From a virus (taxonomy: Duplodnaviria; Heunggongvirae; Uroviricota; Caudoviricetes): a stretch of DNA of 41,358 bases. The translations under genes were made by a program, and so were the position numbers. The notes beneath the pieces are model-generated. The model was not told the origin of the DNA. It was given only the letters and a program-made list of their open reading frames with translations, and did not search any database. The first letter of the stretch is position 1; each line of letters starts with the position of its first letter. Positions 3,368 through 36,027 of the stretch are shown in pieces. The stretch lies in the IMG/VR virus record IMGVR_UViG_2740892232_000004. One strand, given 5' to 3'.

Positions 3368-3394
3368 CCCGCAAAATATTGCGGGCTTTTTTTT
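3368..3394 (+). terminator. Hairpin plus T-run (plus-strand terminator-like) overlapping tailspike stop
   Basis: CCCGCAA-AATA-TTGCGGG followed by T8 on the plus strand; no T-run on the minus strand. Confidence 0.35.
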
Positions 3395-6300
3395 AACGTT
3401 CTTCCAGAGACTGAATCCGCTCTTTTATCTTATCCATTTCTCTGCGCTGCCATGCTGCCTCGATATAGAATAAGAGATCAGGTCTGACCCCCCATCTAGA
3501 TCCTGCTGGCGTTATTTCAACGCGCTCAATGATGTCTTCCATTACCATCACTGGATTATCATCCTCATCAACAATGATGCTCCCGTCATTATCAGTCAGC
3601 GGCATTTCCCTTTGGCCAGTAATGACGTCATCATATACTGCGGGATAATCGTCATAGCAAAGAAAGGCATAGCGGCATGTTGTGCTTTCTTCTTCCATGA
3701 GTCCGTGAGAAATAAGAACATCACGAAGTTGCTGCGCGATTACACCATGATGTATCCTCGCCCCTTCTTCCCCCTTTATAGCGACAGCGTTCAGCCATTT
3801 ATAAGCGATATACCTGACGTCACCCCAGGCATCCAGCAATGCTTCGTCAGGAGAGACCGGCTCTGTCTTTAATGTTCCGTCACTGGTAACCACAGGATTG
3901 GAGCCAAGATAAACTGTCGAGAACCTGTTTCCCGGACCACCAAGAGCATTTACATTATCAAGATAAGGTTTAACATCTCCGTTCTCAAAAAGATGTTCGA
4001 GTGCGTTATATACCGCGCGACGTGGAGTACTGCTTCCGGAACCATGCAACGTTATCATTGCACCATCTGCTGAAGACGTTGTTTCACCGCCGCTAACGAT
4101 TAATCTCTGAGCGGTAACATCATCAGACGGTACTTTCTTCGCAATAATGGCGTAATTACCCTCAAGTTTGACTTCCGCGCGAACTTGTCCTGATGTACCT
4201 GCATGGACAGTCAGTGACTGGACGGCAACATCATCTGTGAAATCAACGGGTACAGGAACCGTCCTCACGCCTGACGTCGACATAAAAGTAGGAAGCGTTC
4301 TGTTAGGAGTGGCTCCGTAGACAAAATCCCTTGAAACAAATTCTTCCTGTTTAATTTTCACCCTGAAACAATACAAATCAGCCGGGTGACCATCGTGAAC
4401 ATAAGGATATTTTCTGTTGTTATCCCCTATGCTCCATGGGTTTAGAAAGTCTTCCCCACCGAAAATGTAGTACAGCCAGTTGTCTTTGATACAAACTGAA
4501 CCAACACCAACTGCAGAGTTAACTATTCCGCCCTGATAAATCTGATCAGTAACATTAACCCACTCTACATTATCCAGACTCCACTCATTGACGTTAACTC
4601 TGGTCATAAATGTTCTTGGATAATTTCCTGCATAACGGTTATCAGGTTCTCCTCCTTCCCACTCACCAAATGCGCGCTCACTGCCAAAAATAATCAGCTC
4701 ATCGCCAACTTTGGCAAAAGGAAGGTTTGAGTGATGAACATTATTTGGGAAGCGAAGAGAATTCCATGATGTACCTAAATCAGAGCTTCTGTGCAATGAA
4801 CTACCGGGTTGAGTACTTAATGTCCCCCTGGTCGTCAGATACAGAATGCCATCATAATATTTTACACATGGCTCAGATGCATTCGCCTCATATTCTGCAG
4901 GTATGCGTCTGCGAACAAAGCTACCAGGAGAACCGAAAGCATCAGAGAAATAGAGTATCCCAAGCTCGCGTGGACCAATATCACCATTATGGTAGCCAAC
5001 AGCAAAACTGTTATCGCTAATCGTCGCAAAACTGTGAATCTCAGTAACAGGAGTGCTTCCGTCAACAAAAGAAGGAATAGTTCCAAGACTGGTTTTTCTC
5101 CATGGTGACGAGTGAAATGATGTACCAAAACTCCAGTATCTACCCTCGTTATTCTGATCCACATCCTGGGTATTTTGCGTCGTAACTGTAAAAGTATTTT
5201 TATCAATAACAGTAGTCACCGTCATATTCCCGGTAACACCTGTAACACCAGAGTTTGAGAAGTTGACAAAATCACCAGCAAATAATCCGTGATCAGTAAT
5301 GCGAATATAAGCGACTTGCTGATTTGCTGCTTTCGTTATACCACCATAAGCGCGAAGGCTGCGACTCATTGGGCGATCCCACAACTCTGCAACCTGCAGT
5401 TTATTTCCGCTCACGGTCCGCGTCTCAATTACAGCAAAAAGGCGATTTCTGACAACCCCCATACTCATGCAGTGATAGTTAACTGTGGGATAGTTTTCAT
5501 GTAAATCTGTAAGCCATTCCGGCGTTGTCCAGGTCTTCCCGTCATCTCCTGAGCGAACCCATGCAACATGGAGGTTATTTACACCATGGCGGTCTCCAGC
5601 CATAAAAGGCGCATAGATGACATTGTCATATACAAACGTTTTATCCTGCGTCCAGGCGTTGTACCACGGTGTATCTGTAATTTTAAATAACTCTCCCTGG
5701 ATAAAATCTTCAGAAGCATAAAAAAGAGGCTGGCCCGGTATTCTCTCAAATAAAAAACGAGCATTTTTAAATCGACTGACATCCGGAAGAGTTGATACTT
5801 TAAAAGTAAGCCCTAATCCGTCAATTTTATAACCTGGAGATGAGGCTTCAAGGCACGCGCTTATTGCAGTGGAATCGTCATTTATACCATCACCAACAGC
5901 TCCAAAATCTTTGGGGCTAATAGCATCACGCATTTTATCCTGGAACGTTCGGTACACAGCCCCAGAACCATACTGAATAAACCAACCAAAACCACCAACA
6001 ACCCCGGCGATTGCAGCATCGACATAATTACGCATTGAGCGATTATTTACAGCGTCCTGCTCAAATGATGGATCTGCAAGGTTAGAAATTTTGTTTTGCT
6101 TTGCATCGTAATATTTTGCAAGCAAAGATGGTTTCATCAATGCACGTCTGAACCACCCAAAACATTGCTGGATCAGCATCGTCAGGTAGTCAAAGGCATC
6201 TTCATGCACTTCGGGGAAAAATTTTCCCTGATTGCGAAGGTCTGTCTCCTGCACTACATCAAGCACACGATCTATCGTAATTCGCCATCCAGTAGCAAGC

Positions 6301-6512
6301 GGAGACGGAAGAACCACAGAACCGCCACTATAAGTGCCCGCCCCAGTTACCGTATAACCGGTATCCAGAACCAATTCTGTTACGTTTCCGTTCAGGTCAG
6401 ACACCTGAACAACCAGGTCTGATTTTCTGAAAATTCGAAAAGTATACGGAAACGATGTCGTAACGCCGTTACCGGTGTATTCGTTGTGGTCAACTTCGGT
6501 TGAGACCGTCAT
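3393..6512 (-). CDS. Tailspike/tail fibre: N-terminal particle-binding domain, central domain with sialidase-type Asp-box motifs, C-terminal intramolecular-chaperone (peptidase S74-like) domain
   Basis: 1039 aa; GGAGAT RBS; Asp-box-like SGDDGKTW and SSDLGTSW; C-terminal …TSDGTLK… region typical of auto-cleaving chaperone domains of endosialidases/tail fibres. Confidence 0.75.
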   Translation of the reverse strand: MTVSTEVDHNEYTGNGVTTSFPYTFRIFRKSDLVVQVSDLNGNVTELVLDTGYTVTGAGTYSGGSVVLPSPLATGWRITIDRVLDVVQETDLRNQGKFFPEVHEDAFDYLTMLIQQCFGWFRRALMKPSLLAKYYDAKQNKISNLADPSFEQDAVNNRSMRNYVDAAIAGVVGGFGWFIQYGSGAVYRTFQDKMRDAISPKDFGAVGDGINDDSTAISACLEASSPGYKIDGLGLTFKVSTLPDVSRFKNARFLFERIPGQPLFYASEDFIQGELFKITDTPWYNAWTQDKTFVYDNVIYAPFMAGDRHGVNNLHVAWVRSGDDGKTWTTPEWLTDLHENYPTVNYHCMSMGVVRNRLFAVIETRTVSGNKLQVAELWDRPMSRSLRAYGGITKAANQQVAYIRITDHGLFAGDFVNFSNSGVTGVTGNMTVTTVIDKNTFTVTTQNTQDVDQNNEGRYWSFGTSFHSSPWRKTSLGTIPSFVDGSTPVTEIHSFATISDNSFAVGYHNGDIGPRELGILYFSDAFGSPGSFVRRRIPAEYEANASEPCVKYYDGILYLTTRGTLSTQPGSSLHRSSDLGTSWNSLRFPNNVHHSNLPFAKVGDELIIFGSERAFGEWEGGEPDNRYAGNYPRTFMTRVNVNEWSLDNVEWVNVTDQIYQGGIVNSAVGVGSVCIKDNWLYYIFGGEDFLNPWSIGDNNRKYPYVHDGHPADLYCFRVKIKQEEFVSRDFVYGATPNRTLPTFMSTSGVRTVPVPVDFTDDVAVQSLTVHAGTSGQVRAEVKLEGNYAIIAKKVPSDDVTAQRLIVSGGETTSSADGAMITLHGSGSSTPRRAVYNALEHLFENGDVKPYLDNVNALGGPGNRFSTVYLGSNPVVTSDGTLKTEPVSPDEALLDAWGDVRYIAYKWLNAVAIKGEEGARIHHGVIAQQLRDVLISHGLMEEESTTCRYAFLCYDDYPAVYDDVITGQREMPLTDNDGSIIVDEDDNPVMVMEDIIERVEITPAGSRWGVRPDLLFYIEAAWQRREMDKIKERIQSLEER

Positions 6513-6615: not shown

Positions 6616-6632
6616 ATTACCTTTCAGGTAAT
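6616..6632. repeat. Palindromic operator-like motif ATTACCT-TTC-AGGTAAT (copy 1)
   Basis: Perfect 7-3-7 inverted repeat in the intergenic region between tailspike start and the LexA-box gene; an ATTACCT half-site also at 6566-6572. Confidence 0.55.
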
Positions 6633-6707: not shown

Positions 6708-6965
6708 ATGCAGCAGTATCACTATCCACTGGAAGACGGATTTACCGAAAGGATTCACACGCCGGGAGGCGTCAGGTCACTGGTGGAGGGATCGCACTTG
6801 ATGAAATTACTCCGGGATCTCGATAAGGATGGATTTAATGTCGATGGCCCACTTGCCGAACTGACTGCACTGATTAACTACGTCACCAGCTCACAGATGT
6901 CTATGCAGGATCTGCAAACACATCTCGACTATTGTGCCGAACAATTACGAAAACAAACCCGGTAA
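6708..6965 (+). CDS. Small SOS-regulated antirepressor candidate (stand-alone copy of the BRO-N protein C-terminal domain)
   Basis: ATG with GGAGAAG RBS; residues ~9-80 align to the C-terminal 75 aa of the 8114-8824 protein (shared …PLxxG…IH[ST]PxGV…LMxLL…DG…AELT…DxQTH…Y). Confidence 0.6.
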   Translation: MQQYHYPLEDGFTERIHTPGGVRSLVEGSHLMKLLRDLDKDGFNVDGPLAELTALINYVTSSQMSMQDLQTHLDYCAEQLRKQTR

Positions 6966-6987: not shown

Positions 6988-7716
6988 CTATCGTTTCGCT
7001 TTGTGCTCGTCCCAGCACGTTTTGCACCATGCCATTAAGCCGTCCGCATTTTGATTATTAGGGTAAAAGCTGGTCCGTTTTCTGCGGACATTACAAATTG
7101 GGCACCACTTCATATGGCGTGTATTCTTTGGGCCATCGAGACACCTTGCACACCACTTAGTCAATCCATCTGGATTTTTTGACGATTTCCGGAATTTGTC
7201 ATATGGAAGGTTTATTCTGCATCGCAAACACTGCTTGCGGCCACTTGAAACTCTGTTAGCTGATTCTTCTTTTGGCGGCGATACAGAAGGTATTCTTGCT
7301 GGCTCTGATACTGCCTGAGGTGCTTTTTTAGATGACTGAGACGATATGTCATCACCAGGGAATCTTCCATGATATGCCGGACGCATTGATACTCCAGGTG
7401 GAAGCTCAGCTGTAAACGGCTTTGGCTGAATCAGTTGCCTCTCTTTTGCTAACTCCTGCTGTTTACAATATGTCTGGATTACCGCACTATCATAAGCAGG
7501 AGGTGCGGAAATATTAGGCGCATTACCTCCAGTTTTTTGAAACTGAGTAGAGGTGTGTTCTATCACCTGTGTACGATTAATCGTTATCTCCCCATCTTCG
7601 GTCTTTATCGTTTTGTTATGATTAACGACCGTACGATCAGAGATCTTAGTCTTGTTCTGGTTGATAACGTAAATAATCACCGCAACCACACCAACAACTA
7701 TCCAGAAAACTTCCAT
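6988..7716 (-). CDS. Membrane-anchored protein with tandem CxxC zinc-ribbon repeats
   Basis: N-terminal TM helix, S/P-rich linker, C-terminal four CxxC pairs with repeated …DGLxxWCxxC; GAGGAAAA RBS. Confidence 0.6.
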   Translation of the reverse strand: MEVFWIVVGVVAVIIYVINQNKTKISDRTVVNHNKTIKTEDGEITINRTQVIEHTSTQFQKTGGNAPNISAPPAYDSAVIQTYCKQQELAKERQLIQPKPFTAELPPGVSMRPAYHGRFPGDDISSQSSKKAPQAVSEPARIPSVSPPKEESANRVSSGRKQCLRCRINLPYDKFRKSSKNPDGLTKWCARCLDGPKNTRHMKWCPICNVRRKRTSFYPNNQNADGLMAWCKTCWDEHKAKR

Positions 7717-7735
7717 TGCTTTTCCTCACAATAAC

Positions 7736-7752
7736 ATTACCTTAAAGGTAAT
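7736..7752. repeat. Palindromic motif ATTACCT-TAA-AGGTAAT (copy 2)
   Basis: Perfect inverted repeat 19 nt upstream of the ATG of the 6988-7716 gene. Confidence 0.55.
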
Positions 7753-7828
7753 ATCTTGCTTTCAGGTGATCAAGCGTTAAACGCCACCAACCAAATACGG
7801 TTGATTTTGATATTTCTCCGCGTTTATC

Positions 7829-7845
7829 ATTACCTTTGCGGTAAA
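7829..7845. repeat. Palindromic motif ATTACCT-TTG-CGGTAAA (copy 3, degenerate right arm)
   Basis: TTACC-N5-GGTAA core conserved; TTGATA -35-like hexamer about 17 bp upstream. Confidence 0.45.
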
Positions 7846-7935
7846 TTTACATCGCACTCCTCTTGTGCCATAGTAATCGGGCACTGGCAAAATCCAGTGC
7901 CGGGATTGGCGTCCCGGGTTACTAAGTGGCGCATA

Positions 7936-7957
7936 CCACGCCAGACGTGGTTTTTTT
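7936..7957 (+). terminator. Rho-independent terminator-like hairpin in a noncoding region
   Basis: CCACG-CCAGA-CGTGG followed by T7; preceded by a 9-bp stem-loop (GGCACTGG…CCAGTGCC) at about 7879-7902. Confidence 0.45.
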
Positions 7958-8113
7958 ATGCGTTAAGCACAGCTATATCCGAATTATGGTGGGCTGGGCA
8001 GGGGTCCGAAAGGACGCCGGTACCACTTAGGCCGGTACGCCAACCTTGTCCAGTTCACCACCAGTAATTGGCGTTGCGGTGGTGATTAAAATCACTAAGT
8101 GGAGATAACCACC

Positions 8114-8824
8114 ATGGCTAATGCTCAAACTTCCATCTTCAAATTTGAATCTGTTAACCCTATCCGTTCCATCATTATCGATGGCCAACCATGGTTTGTA
8201 GCCCAAGACGTTTGTAGTGCGCTGCGTATCCAAAACGTCACCCAAGCACTTGAAAAACTGGATGATGATGAAAGGTCTATGTTCAACATAGGGCATGAAC
8301 ATCGTGCAATTTTTGACAGCCGAGTAAAAGAGATCAACATCATCTCCGAGTCAGGCCTCTACACACTGATCCTCCGCTGCCGCGACGCAGTGACACCAGG
8401 CACTATCCCCTACCGCTTTCGTAAATGGGTTACGGGTGAGGTTCTTCCTCAGATCCGCCGCACCGGAAGCTACATTAAAAACTCGCTCCCGCAGGAAGAA
8501 CGCATAAAGATGGTTGCCGACCAGGTGGCCAACGCCACGGCGTCAGCAGTAATGCAGGCGATGAAGATAGAGAACAAAACCTACAGCGCCCCACTGAATC
8601 CCGGCTACCGCAGCCTGATTCATTCGCCGTCTGGTGTTCTCGGCCTGACGGAGAACTCACTGCTGATGAATCTGCTGAACCAGTTACAGGACGACGGGCA
8701 CGACGTATCGGGCGCGGCGGCGGAGCTGACCACCATGTTCTGCTACATCGTCGGTGTGAGCAAATGCCTGCGTGATATCCAGACCCACGCGGAATACATC
8801 AACGACAAGGCAGGGTTCTTCTGA
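8114..8824 (+). CDS. BRO-N domain antirepressor-like protein
   Basis: ATG with GGAG RBS; N-terminal BRO-N-like segment (FVAQDVCSAL…ISESGLYTLILR…FRKWV); C-terminal domain homologous to the 6708-6965 product. Confidence 0.75.
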   Translation: MANAQTSIFKFESVNPIRSIIIDGQPWFVAQDVCSALRIQNVTQALEKLDDDERSMFNIGHEHRAIFDSRVKEINIISESGLYTLILRCRDAVTPGTIPYRFRKWVTGEVLPQIRRTGSYIKNSLPQEERIKMVADQVANATASAVMQAMKIENKTYSAPLNPGYRSLIHSPSGVLGLTENSLLMNLLNQLQDDGHDVSGAAAELTTMFCYIVGVSKCLRDIQTHAEYINDKAGFF

Positions 8825-9644: not shown

Positions 9645-9806
9645 ATGAAAAAAGCATTTGCTGCACTGTTCGTTTTGTTGTCTCTGGTAGCTTCAACTCA
9701 GGCCTTTGCCGGTCGTTGTCAGCACGACAGCGACACTGCTGCTGACGGCTCCCGCTGCGGTGGGCGTTCTGCGGACTCCCGTCCGGGCGGCGGTGGCATT
9801 CGTTAA
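9645..9806 (+). CDS. Small predicted secreted protein (53 aa)
   Basis: Signal-peptide-like N-terminus (MKKAFAALFVLLSLVASTQAFA), Gly-rich mature part with 2 Cys; TTGACG-16-TATAGA promoter-like elements upstream. Confidence 0.3.
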   Translation: MKKAFAALFVLLSLVASTQAFAGRCQHDSDTAADGSRCGGRSADSRPGGGGIR

Positions 9807-9829
9807 AAACAAGGCCGCGAAAGCGGCCT
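9800..9829 (-). terminator. Minus-strand terminator at the end of the virion operon
   Basis: GGCCGC-GAAA-GCGGCC hairpin followed on the minus strand by TTGTTTTT. Confidence 0.5.
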
Positions 9830-9841
9830 GTGACATGTCAC
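9830..9841. repeat. 12-bp perfect palindrome GTGACATGTCAC (copy 1 of 3)
   Basis: Exact copies also at 27026-27037 and 29291-29302. Confidence 0.6.
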
Positions 9842-9848
9842 GCTCACG

Positions 9849-9989
9849 TTATGACAAGCCTATGTACCCTGCTACACCAGATAATATCATAATAACTGCA
9901 ACAGCAAATTCGCCATCGTCAATGATACATTTACGGTTCATAACGCCAAGTGCAACAAGCGCAAACACAACAAGAATAAAAGCAATCAT
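9849..9989 (-). CDS. Small membrane protein (46 aa) at the end of the virion operon
   Basis: AAGGA RBS then ATG immediately after the stop of the 824-aa virion protein; two hydrophobic segments; followed by the minus-strand terminator. Confidence 0.4.
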   Translation of the reverse strand: MIAFILVVFALVALGVMNRKCIIDDGEFAVAVIMILSGVAGYIGLS

Positions 9990-9998
9990 TTCTCATCC

Positions 9999-12473
9999 TT
10001 ATTGCGGAGTGACATCCTGTGGTCGCCACCAGTATGTCTGGTTAAACTCTTTCTTCGAACGTTGCTCCATTTTACGCAAATAACCTGGTGAAAAATACTC
10101 CTGCATCTGGTTAAAGATCATGTGATCGAGAGCCGCCTTCAAGTACCAGAGATTCGCACCTGGCATCAGACCTTTCCCCAGCTTAACCAGATCACCACCA
10201 GTCTGCTCACTCTTCCCTTCCACAGCATTTAACGGTATGCCCTGAGCAATCTTCACTACGTCATCAACCAGACCAGCTACCGGGCCAAGCATCGACGCCA
10301 GCGCGCCGCTTCCGTACCTAGTGTGATCTGACAATAAAAAGTCACCGTAAAGGCCAAGACCACCACCTTTCAGTAGAGCACCAAGCCAAAATTTAGCAGC
10401 ATCTTCTCCTGTCATCTCGCGAGGATTACGACCAGACGCAAGGTCGTTAAGTTGCTGCGACAAAGCGCCAAGAATGGTCGTACTGGCAATAAACGTCGCA
10501 ATATATGCCGCACGCCCACCAGCAGACGGCATACCCATAGCGCGTGACCAGTGACGCATAACCACCGAGATAGGGAACGATTTAAACAGGAAAACACTTC
10601 TCGTTAATTCACCTTTCCATGTTCCACGCTGAATACCAGAACCGGTTATCAGTTGCTCACGTGCTCCCGGTGTAATAACAGCCATATCAACTTCTTCAGT
10701 TACGGCACCGAGCAGTTTACGCATTGCCTCAAATTTCACGCGTTCAGGCTCACCAAGATGTTTAACTGCTGAATCAGGGATACGCATAATGCTTTCCGGT
10801 GTCAGCATCGTATTATTACCGTTCCCCCAGTCCTCCTGTTTCGCCAGCTTCCATACGCTCCAGTCTGTGTCAGTAATCCCTTTGCTTTTCAGGATACGAA
10901 AATCAGAGTCATCGAGGCTACGAAGGTCTGGTGTACGTGACACTACTTCTCCCAGGCTTCCCATCATGGTTACGCCATAGGCGCGCTTGTGCGCATCTGA
11001 CCATGCTGTAAGCCCACTGGCACGCATTACCGCCGTTGCCGCCCAACGAGACACTGACGGCCCCATATTATCCATCGCCCAGCGGTTAACGCTGCCAAGT
11101 AGAGATTCCATCGCCAGACCAGCGCGGCGCGCCCGCGCAAGTTCTGTACGGTTCGTTGGGTCCATAGCTTCAAGCTGGTTGCGGAATAACTGGTTCATTG
11201 GAAGGTTGGTAACCTTCGCAGACAGATACATGGTTCCAAGATCAGAGAACGATGACAGCAACGCGGATCCGAGTCTGCTGGCAACCAGCCAGTTGCGGAT
11301 ATTGTCAGACCATCGCGCGATGTGCGGATTCGCTACAGGCTGTGTCTTTCCGGAAATAAAGTTGTACAGATTCTCTGTGTTGTTCGCCAGCCGCTCGACT
11401 TTACCGGTTTTACTCGGGTTAGCTGTTGCCGTTTCTGCCTTCACCTGATCAAGAAGAGAGCGGAAAACATGATCGGGGTTTGGGCCATATGTTTCCACCA
11501 GTGCAATATCTTTACTGATACCTTCCAGGTGACCGACCATGATTTCCCATAGAGAGCGATCGCCATAAAGTTGCTGATATTGCAGATAGGAATCTGCATC
11601 TTTGAAATGTATCTGTCGTGATGCATTACCACGGTTAGCACGTGCGCCGGAAATTCGCATTCCGGTATCAGTAAGCTTATTCAGCCCACCAGTAGCGATC
11701 GTGTTATAAGCCTCTCCAAGAAATGAAGACAACTCGGCATCGTTCATCAGTTGTCCATCGGCTCGGATATAATATTTGCGATCCAGCTTACCTATAACAT
11801 CGCTAACCCACTTATCCTTTGATACTGCCCCAACCTTTTCCATAGAATGATGTTGAGGGATCCCCCAGTTTTCGAGATAGCCAATGTCCCCACCAGCATC
11901 ATTAAACCGGCGGCGCAGCAGCTCTGTAACTTCTCTCCACGCCTTAGCACCGTTTCTTGCTTTAGCATTGCCAGTATTTTGCCCCCGCATTTCATATACC
12001 AGGTCACGTACGCCCGCTTCATCTTCAAACAGACCAAAAAAGCGAGGATCAACTGCTTCGAATGCCTCCTGCAATTGACTCAATGCATAATCACGGGTGG
12101 CTTTTGTTCTGGATTCAACAGAGAGGAAATTAGATTTACCGTCTGCATTAAAAGCTATAGTACGGTTAAGAGCGCCAAGTTTCCCATCAGCCCCTTGATA
12201 GCTATTGATAAATTTATCCAATCTCTGACGCGCGGCTATAGTGAGAGCCACACGACGTTTCTTTAATGCCGCTTCTCGCTGTAATTCTTCAGATGCCAAT
12301 TGTGCTGCTCGATATAGCCGCTCTGATTCGGAAAGTTGTCTCCACGACATCGGGTCATCACGAGCAATGGAGCGCATATTTCGATAAATGCGGTCTTCAA
12401 TGTTCTGTATTTCTCGCGCCGTTAACGTGCGCTGCGCCGCCTGCTGGACCGCTTGTATACATTCCTGTCTCAT
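9999..12473 (-). CDS. Internal virion / DNA-ejection protein (824 aa)
   Basis: Large ORF in the run of internal virion genes downstream of the tail tubular genes; no catalytic motif recognised. Confidence 0.7.
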   Translation of the reverse strand: MRQECIQAVQQAAQRTLTAREIQNIEDRIYRNMRSIARDDPMSWRQLSESERLYRAAQLASEELQREAALKKRRVALTIAARQRLDKFINSYQGADGKLGALNRTIAFNADGKSNFLSVESRTKATRDYALSQLQEAFEAVDPRFFGLFEDEAGVRDLVYEMRGQNTGNAKARNGAKAWREVTELLRRRFNDAGGDIGYLENWGIPQHHSMEKVGAVSKDKWVSDVIGKLDRKYYIRADGQLMNDAELSSFLGEAYNTIATGGLNKLTDTGMRISGARANRGNASRQIHFKDADSYLQYQQLYGDRSLWEIMVGHLEGISKDIALVETYGPNPDHVFRSLLDQVKAETATANPSKTGKVERLANNTENLYNFISGKTQPVANPHIARWSDNIRNWLVASRLGSALLSSFSDLGTMYLSAKVTNLPMNQLFRNQLEAMDPTNRTELARARRAGLAMESLLGSVNRWAMDNMGPSVSRWAATAVMRASGLTAWSDAHKRAYGVTMMGSLGEVVSRTPDLRSLDDSDFRILKSKGITDTDWSVWKLAKQEDWGNGNNTMLTPESIMRIPDSAVKHLGEPERVKFEAMRKLLGAVTEEVDMAVITPGAREQLITGSGIQRGTWKGELTRSVFLFKSFPISVVMRHWSRAMGMPSAGGRAAYIATFIASTTILGALSQQLNDLASGRNPREMTGEDAAKFWLGALLKGGGLGLYGDFLLSDHTRYGSGALASMLGPVAGLVDDVVKIAQGIPLNAVEGKSEQTGGDLVKLGKGLMPGANLWYLKAALDHMIFNQMQEYFSPGYLRKMEQRSKKEFNQTYWWRPQDVTPQ

Positions 12474-26401: not shown

Positions 26402-26478
26402 TCTCAGCGTTGTGGCATTAGCTCAGTTGGACAGAGCAACCGCCTTCTAAGCGGTTGGTCGCAGGTTCGAATCCTGCA
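26402..26478 (+). tRNA. tRNA-Arg (anticodon UCU)
   Basis: Folded by hand: 7-bp acceptor stem GUGGCAU/AUGCCAC, D-arm GCUC…GAGC, anticodon stem ACCGC/GCGGU with loop CUUCUAA, T-arm GCAGG-UUCGAAU-CCUGC, discriminator G, encoded CCA. Confidence 0.85.
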
Positions 26479-26531
26479 TGCCACGCCAGAATCACGCCTA
26501 AGGACCGTGATGCCAGAAGTTCCAGGTGCTT

Positions 26532-29177: not shown

Positions 29178-29196
29178 CATAACCACCGTGGTAATA

Positions 29197-35442: not shown

Positions 35443-36027
35443 ATGAAAAGTATCCAGGACGTCCGCAGGCAAAATCTCAACGACTTGATCGACCGTGAAT
35501 TCAATGGTGTTCAGACGCGGATGGCAGAAAAACTTGGAACTCAGGCAAATCTGGTAAACCGCTGGGCTCTTGGCAAGAAGGTTATCGGCGACCAGGTTGC
35601 ACGAAAAATTGAAGCTGCCGCCAATAAACCCCGTAACTGGCTTGATATTGATCGTTCGCTTTCTCAGGAGGGTTTTCAGCCTGTCGGCCCGAGCGATATA
35701 GGTCAGCTGGCGGCTCACAACCTGGAACGCTGGATGAGCGAAAGCCGCGACCTTTCAACACAGGGAAAACTTCACCGCGCATCCGGCGTCGCCCAGGTGA
35801 CAATCAGCCGCCTGTTAAACAATGAGGTCAGCGTTTCCATTTCCACCCTGGAGAATGTTGCATCCGCATTCGGGCGTCACGGATATGAACTACTGATTCA
35901 CCCGCACGACCCTGCGACTATCAACTATGACCGCTCACGCTACGCATTGTTACCCGAAACCGAGAAAGCAAAGATCGAAAGTTACATTGAATTTGTCATC
36001 AACCAGAACGAAAAAAGCAAACAATAA
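35443..36027 (+). CDS. CI-like repressor with two HTH-like segments and no LexA-type (S24) autocleavage domain
   Basis: 194 aa; HTH-like regions around residues 25-45 and 105-135; no GDSM / Ser-Lys dyad motif; no obvious SD upstream of ATG. Confidence 0.65.
   Translation: MKSIQDVRRQNLNDLIDREFNGVQTRMAEKLGTQANLVNRWALGKKVIGDQVARKIEAAANKPRNWLDIDRSLSQEGFQPVGPSDIGQLAAHNLERWMSESRDLSTQGKLHRASGVAQVTISRLLNNEVSVSISTLENVASAFGRHGYELLIHPHDPATINYDRSRYALLPETEKAKIESYIEFVINQNEKSKQ

Follow-up and report, generated by a model that had tools for sequence, protein, structure and literature searches.

What occupies the 360-bp stretch between a zinc-ribbon gene and a BRO-N gene in this Caudoviricetes genome, and what might it control? 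The window, that is, the whole stretch of DNA analyzed here (41,358 nucleotides, IMG/VR record IMGVR_UViG_2740892232_000004), contains an intergenic region at 7717-8113. It is flanked by a gene for a membrane-anchored zinc-ribbon protein on the minus strand (6988-7716) and by a BRO-N antirepressor gene on the plus strand (8114-8824), which encodes 236 amino acids (Pfam Bro-N, 9.6e-20; PHROG 130 'anti-repressor Ant', 3e-56) and which we propose as the regulated gene. The initial annotation had suggested that this stretch specifies either a small RNA or a structured 5' leader of the BRO-N gene. Our analysis indicates that it is, with high probability, a P1-type (immI-like) RNA control region for secondary immunity in a phiV10/epsilon15-like Escherichia coli prophage. 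The reading draws on RNA family memberships, on the architecture of the region and on the three-way co-variation of its pairing boxes, all of which were established in this analysis. The module is genuine and functional-looking but of an already described kind, and the copy at this locus is new and unannotated.

The region carries a predicted sigma-70 promoter on the plus strand at 7846-7874 (TTTACA, a 17-nt spacer and (TGc)CATAGT), which reaches 9/12 in a consensus scan and has an extended -10 TG. The transcription start predicted from the promoter consensus lies near 7881, the first base of an RNA family match, and hardly any variation is seen in the promoter across 60 related loci. An operator-like palindrome, TTACC-N5-GGTAA, abuts the -35 of this leader promoter at 7830-7844. 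The palindrome copy and the upstream -35-like hexamer mentioned in the initial annotation are both present (TTACCTTTGCGGTAA at 7830-7844 and TTGATT at 7801-7806). Its role, however, is most likely that of an operator rather than of a part of an RNA structure, as the window holds 13 copies against 0.53 expected (25-fold), a number reached by 0 of 100 shuffles. Copies precede several transcription units in the window, and pairs of them flank a two-HTH repressor candidate at 35443-36027. Across 60 homologous upstream regions, the half-sites are kept while the 5-nt spacer is variable. On these sequence features, the palindrome is most likely the operator of the prophage repressor.

Downstream of this promoter lies an IsrK-type leader sRNA of 77 nt on the plus strand (7881-7957). 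It matches Rfam family RF01394 (isrK) on the plus strand over the full model length (1-77) with 67.7 bits, the gathering score being 50. An overlapping match to RF03163 (c4-a1b1, 'a1, b1 targets of C4') at 7868-7920 scores 44.1 bits, below the gathering score of 46.7. In the predicted fold, hairpin 1 (7881-7900) and hairpin 2 (7901-7917) are followed by a Rho-independent terminator on the plus strand at 7935-7957, in which a 6-bp stem closes a 5-nt loop and precedes seven U. RNA folding, a check proposed earlier, returned these two hairpins and the terminator with z = -2.4, and the whole of 7881-8130 gives a folding z-score of -4.4. The hairpin with its T run had been described correctly (ACCACG-CCAGA-CGTGGT at 7935-7951, then seven T to 7957), and the GC-rich stem-loop is also there (GGCACTGG / CCAGTGCC at 7880-7887 / 7894-7901), although its stem has 8 bp and not 9. 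All features listed earlier are found no more than a base or two from their stated positions. Within 90 nt upstream of C4, 131 of 133 unique modules have five or more consecutive T. The suggested plus-strand sRNA ending at the T run thus corresponds to the 77-nt IsrK-type RNA, which scores above the Rfam gathering threshold. Read-through of the same transcript constitutes a structured BRO-N 5' leader, so that the region is both an sRNA and a leader, not one or the other.

What that candidate-sRNA reading overlooked is the main regulator, a C4-type antisense RNA on the plus strand at about 7988-8062. The Rfam match spans 7982-8065, and the ends of the RNA were inferred by alignment with the 77-nt C4 of P1. 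The match to RF01695 covers the full model length (1-87) on the plus strand and scores 66.0 bits against a gathering score of 45. The two family matches are well above chance, with Rfam E-values of 1.5e-13 for isrK and 7.9e-12 for C4. The C4 segment folds into a long basal stem around two hairpins (MFE -43.6 kcal/mol, z = -5.0). The covariation analysis that had been proposed as a further check supports this structure: in an RNAalifold consensus of 41 diverse C4 homologues, the basal stem and the first hairpin are retained, and compensatory changes are seen in 10 of the 21 consensus pairs. A promoter scan between the terminator and 7988 found no separate C4 promoter.

The three parts of the module are connected by short complementary boxes. 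Box a1 (UUGGCGU, 7906-7912), in the loop of leader hairpin 2, and box a2 (UUGGCGU, 8068-8074), 6 nt past the inferred 3' end of C4, are both exact complements of box a' (ACGCCAA, 8037-8043) in the single-stranded C4 junction after the second hairpin. Box b1 (CUAAGUGG, 7922-7929), in the single-stranded spacer ahead of the terminator, and box b2 (CUAAGUGG, 8095-8102) are the exact complements of box b' (CCACUUAG, 8023-8030), in the loop of the second internal C4 hairpin; all six boxes lie on the plus strand. Ensemble prediction for C4 leaves a' unpaired at 98% or more and gives b' an unpaired probability of 0.55-1.0, with a core near 100%. Box b2 overlaps the Shine-Dalgarno GGAG at 8101-8104, which sits 9 nt before the BRO-N start codon (ATG, 8114-8116). 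These boxes give a meaning to the repeated words that had been noticed, correctly, but left uninterpreted. ACTAAGTGG (7921-7929 and 8094-8102) is the b1/b2 target of the C4 loop, and the two copies of GCCGGTAC (8016-8023 and 8031-8038) form the arms of the C4 hairpin whose loop holds b'. Family members have a2 3-8 nt downstream of C4, and their b2 mostly ends 8-13 nt ahead of the start codon. Computed cognate b duplexes reach -12.6 kcal/mol, compared with -4.9 to -7.1 kcal/mol for pairings with other box classes.

A further conserved element lies between a2 and b2. The GGUGGUGA box (8078-8085, plus strand) is complementary to UCACCACC (8055-8062), which is the 3' strand of the basal stem in C4. 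Across the family, the spacers form predicted duplexes with this strand with a median of -14.1 kcal/mol, compared with -5.4 kcal/mol after shuffling, and 0.2% of shuffles do as well. This conserved complementarity points to an additional, putative structural switch. In the lineage of the window, the GGUGGUGA box is also complementary to the ACCACC just before the AUG. A hairpin between the a2-b2 spacer and the Ant start is found in this lineage only, with one compensatory change (G-C to A-U) between the window and the phiV10 class. As a family-wide feature this hairpin was rejected, with a complement of at least 5 nt in 20% of 50 leaders and in 16% of shuffles. A conserved small hairpin inside the spacer was likewise rejected on a weak signal (median z = -1.24, with z < -1.5 in 42%).

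Comparison with relatives yields clean co-variation evidence for bipartite a/b pairing. We fetched 79 IMG/VR loci that encode relatives of the Ant protein and left out one incomplete locus; the remaining 78, together with phiV10, TL-2011b and one E. coli prophage, form a set of 81 untruncated loci. Both isrK and C4 are present upstream in 81/81. Four box classes appear in the alignment of this set, and in each of them the members of one trio, a1/a'/a2 or b1/b'/b2, change together. For b1/b'/b2, the window class reads CUAAGUGG / CCACUUAG / CUAAGUGG, the phiV10 class CUAAAAGG / CCUUUUAG / CUAAAAGG, and a third class CUACAGAGG (with one G.U) / CCUUUGUAG / CUACAAAGG; in the fourth, a is altered instead (UUUGCAC / GUGCAAA / UUUGCAC). 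Scanning viral contigs with a pattern that put no constraint on the boxes added 120 further loci; among these, C4 came in 77 distinct sequences and the specificity region in 62. Exact complements of the a' 7-mer occur on both sides in 55 of 62 cognate pairings and in none of 3164 non-cognate ones; for b' the corresponding figures are 37/62 and 9/3456. Counting overlapping k-mers, the single mismatches comprise 18 of G.U type, 2 of A.C type and 3 others, and this predominance of G.U fits pairing at the RNA level on the plus strand. All single mismatches in the sample are on the leader side, and none is on the side of the ribosome-binding site. The boxes are diverse, with at least 19 variants of a' and at least 27 of b'.

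The architecture closely parallels that of the P1 immI region. The GenBank annotation of P1 lists the operator Oc4, the promoters P2c4 and P1c4, a1 (48255-48261), b1 (48269-48276), the C4 RNA (48343-48419), a2 (48423-48429), b2 (48452-48459) and the icd start (48470). The window shows the same series of operator (a putative one here), sigma-70 promoter, a1 (7 nt), b1 (8 nt), C4, a2 (7 nt), b2 (8 nt) and start codon. Its promoter is placed as P1c4 is (-10 TATAGT in P1), 32 nt separate the -10 from a1 in the window as in P1, and a1 falls at the same position as the annotated a1 of P1. The gap from C4 to a2 is 4 nt in P1 and 6 nt in the window, the distance from a2 to b2 is 29 and 27 nt, and that from the end of b2 to the start codon 11 and 12 nt, respectively. 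The geometry of b2 over a Shine-Dalgarno sequence is also common to both, that of icd in P1 and that of Ant in the window. The P1 leader has a hairpin and a U run before C4 as well, with scores of 35 bits for isrK and 51 bits for c4-a1b1, and the C4 folds are alike (68.8 bits in P1 and 66 bits in the window). P1 has scattered C1 operators, one of them at the c4 promoter, which the multi-copy palindrome of the window mirrors. A logic of box-specific heteroimmunity, which we propose for the window, would be common to the two.

The two systems also differ in several respects. The P1 boxes are different (a = UUGACAG, b = GUUAGUG), the putative operator in the window would belong to a different repressor, BLASTP showed no similarity between the window Ant and P1 Ant1, and the window phage is a 41-kb podovirus-type prophage, whereas P1 is a plasmid prophage. 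P1 avoids a shut-off of C4 through a second, constitutive promoter, whereas the window has one good promoter only. The putative operator abuts the -35 of that promoter, and full shut-off by the repressor would leave the lysogen without C4. Biere, Citron and Schuster reportedly found in 1992 that P1 C4 blocks translation of icd, so that ant is affected indirectly. The window has no icd-like ORF, with none in 8063-8113, and b2 lies directly on the ribosome-binding site of the antirepressor gene. Direct control is the commoner arrangement in the family sample, in which the first ORF after the module is mostly 175-250 aa long.

The second close counterpart is the antQ-anrP interval of the Salmonella prophage Gifsy-1, which contains the same three Rfam families as the window (isrK 79 bits, c4-a1b1 48 bits and C4 69 bits). 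The leader scores above the isrK (RF01394) gathering score in both, and the C4 match occupies the same place, being orf45/STnc1160 in Gifsy-1 (69 bits, against 66 bits in the window). The a1/a'/a2 boxes are identical in the two loci (UUGGCGU / ACGCCAA). Compensatory mutations in Gifsy-1 (G28A/C162U and G31A/C159U) prove the a1:a' pairing, and IsrK supplied in trans raises anrP translation more than 100-fold (PMC4825925). The window a1 corresponds to nt 26-32 of Gifsy-1 IsrK, spanning the G28 and G31 mutated in that work (PMC4825925), and the verified partners C162 and C159 fall exactly in a'. As in the window, the Gifsy-1 b2 abuts the Shine-Dalgarno sequence of the antirepressor gene. The Gifsy-1 b boxes differ (UCACCG / CGGUGA), the window has no antQ or isrJ neighbor, unlike Gifsy-1, and BLASTP showed no similarity between the window Ant and AnrP. 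The same RNA cassette stands behind different promoter/operator sequences in Gifsy-1 and P1.

Two other antisense systems are more distant. In P4, the CI RNA is a processed sRNA from the transcript of its own targets, seqA and seqC, and pairs with one site upstream and one downstream (PMC4825925). It belongs to a different RNA family, however, and its outcome is premature transcription termination, not occlusion of a ribosome-binding site. The immI region of the short-tailed temperate phage P22 (sar, ant, arc, mnt) lies beside the tailspike gene, and there too secondary immunity arises from an antisense RNA that keeps the antirepressor off. In contrast to C4, the P22 sar RNA is cis-encoded, being transcribed from the strand opposite ant, control rests mostly with Arc and Mnt, and the two RNAs are unrelated in sequence and structure.

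Translational repression, RNA processing, the decoy role and operator binding are carried over to the window from work on P1 and Gifsy-1, and on that basis the module may work as follows. Transcription would start from the sigma-70 promoter (7846-7874) near 7881, and many transcripts would probably end at the intrinsic terminator, yielding a 77-nt IsrK-type RNA that bears a1 and b1. Read-through transcripts would carry C4, which is probably excised by processing; Hartmann et al. are said to have described RNase P processing of C4, at its 5' end, in 1995. Of the C4 boxes, b' would be exposed by a loop and a' by a single-stranded junction. The read-through transcripts would also hold the BRO-N mRNA leader with a2 and b2, the latter over the Shine-Dalgarno sequence, and pairing of a'/b' with a2/b2 would block ribosome binding. 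The antirepressor may thereby be kept off both in the lysogen and when it is brought in by a superinfecting phage with matching box specificity, which would amount to secondary, box-specific immunity. Either as a free RNA or in cis, the a1/b1 leader would compete for the C4 boxes and so counteract C4. Each transcript that contains C4 also has a1/b1, and a decoy role would therefore need differences in stability or affinity. In P1, C4 RNA represses Ant synthesis and is needed for full repression of ant (PMC8546580, PMC8198154). The BRO-N protein is regarded as an antirepressor by family annotation, and its target is assumed to be a repressor; overexpressing the BRO-N ORF4 of vB_EcoP_ZX5, a related Uetakevirus, led to a lower prophage titre (PMC9782041).

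The P1 layout, taken together with the Rfam matches and boxes of Gifsy-1, suggests that IsrK and the 'a1b1' leader of P1 are a single element and that the window holds the complete module. We put forward tentatively, as a possibility that falls somewhat short of being probable, that this family forms a single kind of circuit of decoy leader, antisense RNA and ribosome-binding-site target. In such a circuit, the decoy boxes would deliberately be the weaker partner, and free reassortment of the a and b boxes would generate heteroimmune specificities by the dozen. In the published account of Gifsy-1, the C4 region is taken for an ORF, and the system is likened to P4 CI rather than to P1 C4 (PMC4825925). 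In that prophage, a mutation of a1 in cis raised, rather than lowered, translation of anrP, which implies that the a1/b1 leader is no simple decoy there.

The alternative that survives best is an activation switch of the Gifsy-1 type as the main function, in which read-through RNA folds into a silent form, the IsrK-type RNA opens it in trans, and a small upstream ORF starting at AUG 7986 is translationally coupled to Ant. Its appeal lies in the homology of the locus to isrK-orf45-anrP, the system in which experiments established this mechanism (PMC4825925). Moreover, AUG 7986, inside the C4 element, is invariant in the family, and the GGUGGUGA box can pair either with the 3' strand of C4 or with the ACCACC before the Ant AUG, as a switch requires. 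In Gifsy-1, however, a 45-codon ORF needed for coupling runs through the C4 element to anrP, whereas its counterpart in the window has 14 codons and stops at a TAG (8028-8030) inside b', 83 nt before the Ant ATG, which makes coupling unlikely. The length of this ORF also varies widely across the family (14, 15, 35 and, at the upper end, more than 100 codons), spacer complements to the Ant start occur at near-shuffled frequency, as noted above, and b2 lies on the Ant Shine-Dalgarno sequence itself, as P1 b2 does on that of icd. We therefore consider such a switch an unlikely main function of the module.

By analogy, the IsrK-type RNA could additionally, or instead, target host mRNAs as an Hfq-dependent sRNA. 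The Rfam entry for isrK calls it an Hfq-binding RNA, a property known from Gifsy-1 only (PMC4825925), and the leader RNA offers single-stranded boxes together with a U-tailed terminator hairpin. Nevertheless, its only conserved single-stranded elements, a1 and b1, follow the local C4 boxes and differ between phages, which argues against a fixed host target and makes this role rather improbable. A purely cis-acting leader, whose hairpins and terminator would only attenuate BRO-N transcription without any trans-acting RNA, would agree with the strong intrinsic terminator between promoter and gene and with the failure to find an independent C4 promoter. Attenuation alone nonetheless leaves unexplained both the three-way co-variation of boxes over about 200 nt in 62 variants and the tRNA-like, covariation-supported fold of C4; P1 C4, furthermore, acts in trans (PMC8546580). 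We regard a leader of this sort as very improbable.

A protein-coding role, through the 103-codon TTG ORF at 7756-8067 or small ORFs, can practically be dismissed: the ORF exists mechanically, its C-terminal third matches phrog_20442 (E 1.4e-6) and some records annotate hypothetical proteins here, but 1- and 2-nt indels break its frame in homologous loci, no Shine-Dalgarno sequence is seen ahead of its TTG start, and RefSeq annotates no CDS here. The phrog_20442 match, the sole family match, covers only the C4 RNA region, and for this reason phrog_20442 was probably built from mis-called ORFs. The earlier judgment that the stretch holds no credible ORF is in line with these results. The preferred reading thus remains that of a P1-type RNA control region of the antirepressor gene.

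The module is part of a locus found in other E. coli genomes: a query spanning 7650-8250 has a match in 472 of 5426 complete E. coli genomes, and at least 80% of it is covered in 24 of those. The RNA module is unmarked in all three annotated records that we inspected (phiV10, TL-2011b and a RefSeq E. coli chromosome), and our literature search found no description of C4 or IsrK in Uetakevirus phages. For the window, the result is mainly an annotation fix, in which two RNA genes and the control sites of a prophage antirepressor fill a gap; the module itself would not surprise a specialist in phage immunity. More broadly, the comparison links the literatures on P1 c4 and Salmonella IsrK, which a recent review lists as separate RNAs, and one RNA cassette sits before unrelated antirepressor genes, behind lineage-specific operators. 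If true, the single-circuit reading would reconcile the 'repressor' model of P1 with the 'activator' model of Gifsy-1, and Gifsy-1 orf45 would be recast as a C4 RNA, not a gene. For the phiV10-like prophage, which targets the K1 capsule, this region is the most probable determinant of spontaneous induction and of immunity to superinfection.

The C4 antisense RNA model matches the Gifsy-1 isrK locus with 69 bits (L204, 34131-34214, minus strand), covering the region published as orf45/STnc1160. The paper describing this locus likened it to P4 CI RNA, not P1 c4 (PMC4825925). In some phage records, the C4 region is annotated as 'hypothetical' or 'Ash family' proteins, and its translation in the window (7951-8067) matches the PHROG family phrog_20442 ('unknown function'); this family probably consists of ORFs called spuriously across C4 RNA genes.

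On the 3' side of the downstream target box a2 lies a GGUGGUGA box (8078-8085, plus strand), complementary in sequence to 8055-8062, the 3' strand of the basal stem of C4. Family-wide, the duplex between this box and the C4 3' strand has a median energy of -14.1 kcal/mol, versus -5.4 for shuffled spacers. In the window lineage, ACCACC (8108-8113), just 5' of the AUG of the BRO-N antirepressor gene Ant, also pairs with the GGUGGUGA box. The box may serve as an alternative-structure switch element.

Upstream of the zinc-ribbon gene, an 85-aa ORF (6708-6965, plus strand) shares 42% identity with residues 155-228 of the BRO-N antirepressor (E 2e-15), and both match phrog_450 and phrog_15539. This ORF represents a free-standing paralogue of the antirepressor's C-terminal portion, and its product might modulate or mimic Ant. 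It has its own copy, at 6617, of an operator-like palindrome, TTACC-N5-GGTAA, which occurs 13 times in the window against 0.53 expected. Further single copies lie at 7737, 7830, 8897 and 26075, and paired copies at 29180/29198, 33024/33086, 35325/35373 and 36085/36147; several transcription units are preceded by such copies, and a candidate two-HTH repressor gene (35443-36027) is flanked by them. This arrangement resembles the scattered operators of P1 C1, and the set looks like a scattered-operator system of that type.

Elsewhere in the prophage, the tailspike gene (3393-6512, minus strand) encodes an endosialidase-type protein, as annotated by RefSeq in a 99% identical prophage; this implies K1-capsule specificity for the phiV10-like prophage. 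A tRNA-Arg(TCT) gene is located at 26412-26488 (plus strand).

Several contigs carry more than one isrK+C4 module: three in tandem, spaced 656 bp, at L113 (IMGVR_UViG_2671181028_000005, 9700-11210), and two on some others (L099; L056 and L078 on IMGVR_UViG_3300045988_096329). The a'/b' boxes differ among all three L113 modules, and a paralogous ORF of about 110 aa lies downstream of each. Where a C4 box and a target differ by one base (L041, L099, L104, L110, L113, L123, L198 and others), the mismatch in this sample always falls in the leader copy, a1/b1, and never in the RBS copy; it is usually a G.U pair. Among P1-like C4 genes (P1 itself, L083; L086, L097, L125 and relatives), all four combinations of a' (CTGTCAA, CTGCTAA) and b' (CACTAAC, CACAATC) are present, a pattern indicating that the two specificity boxes reassort independently.
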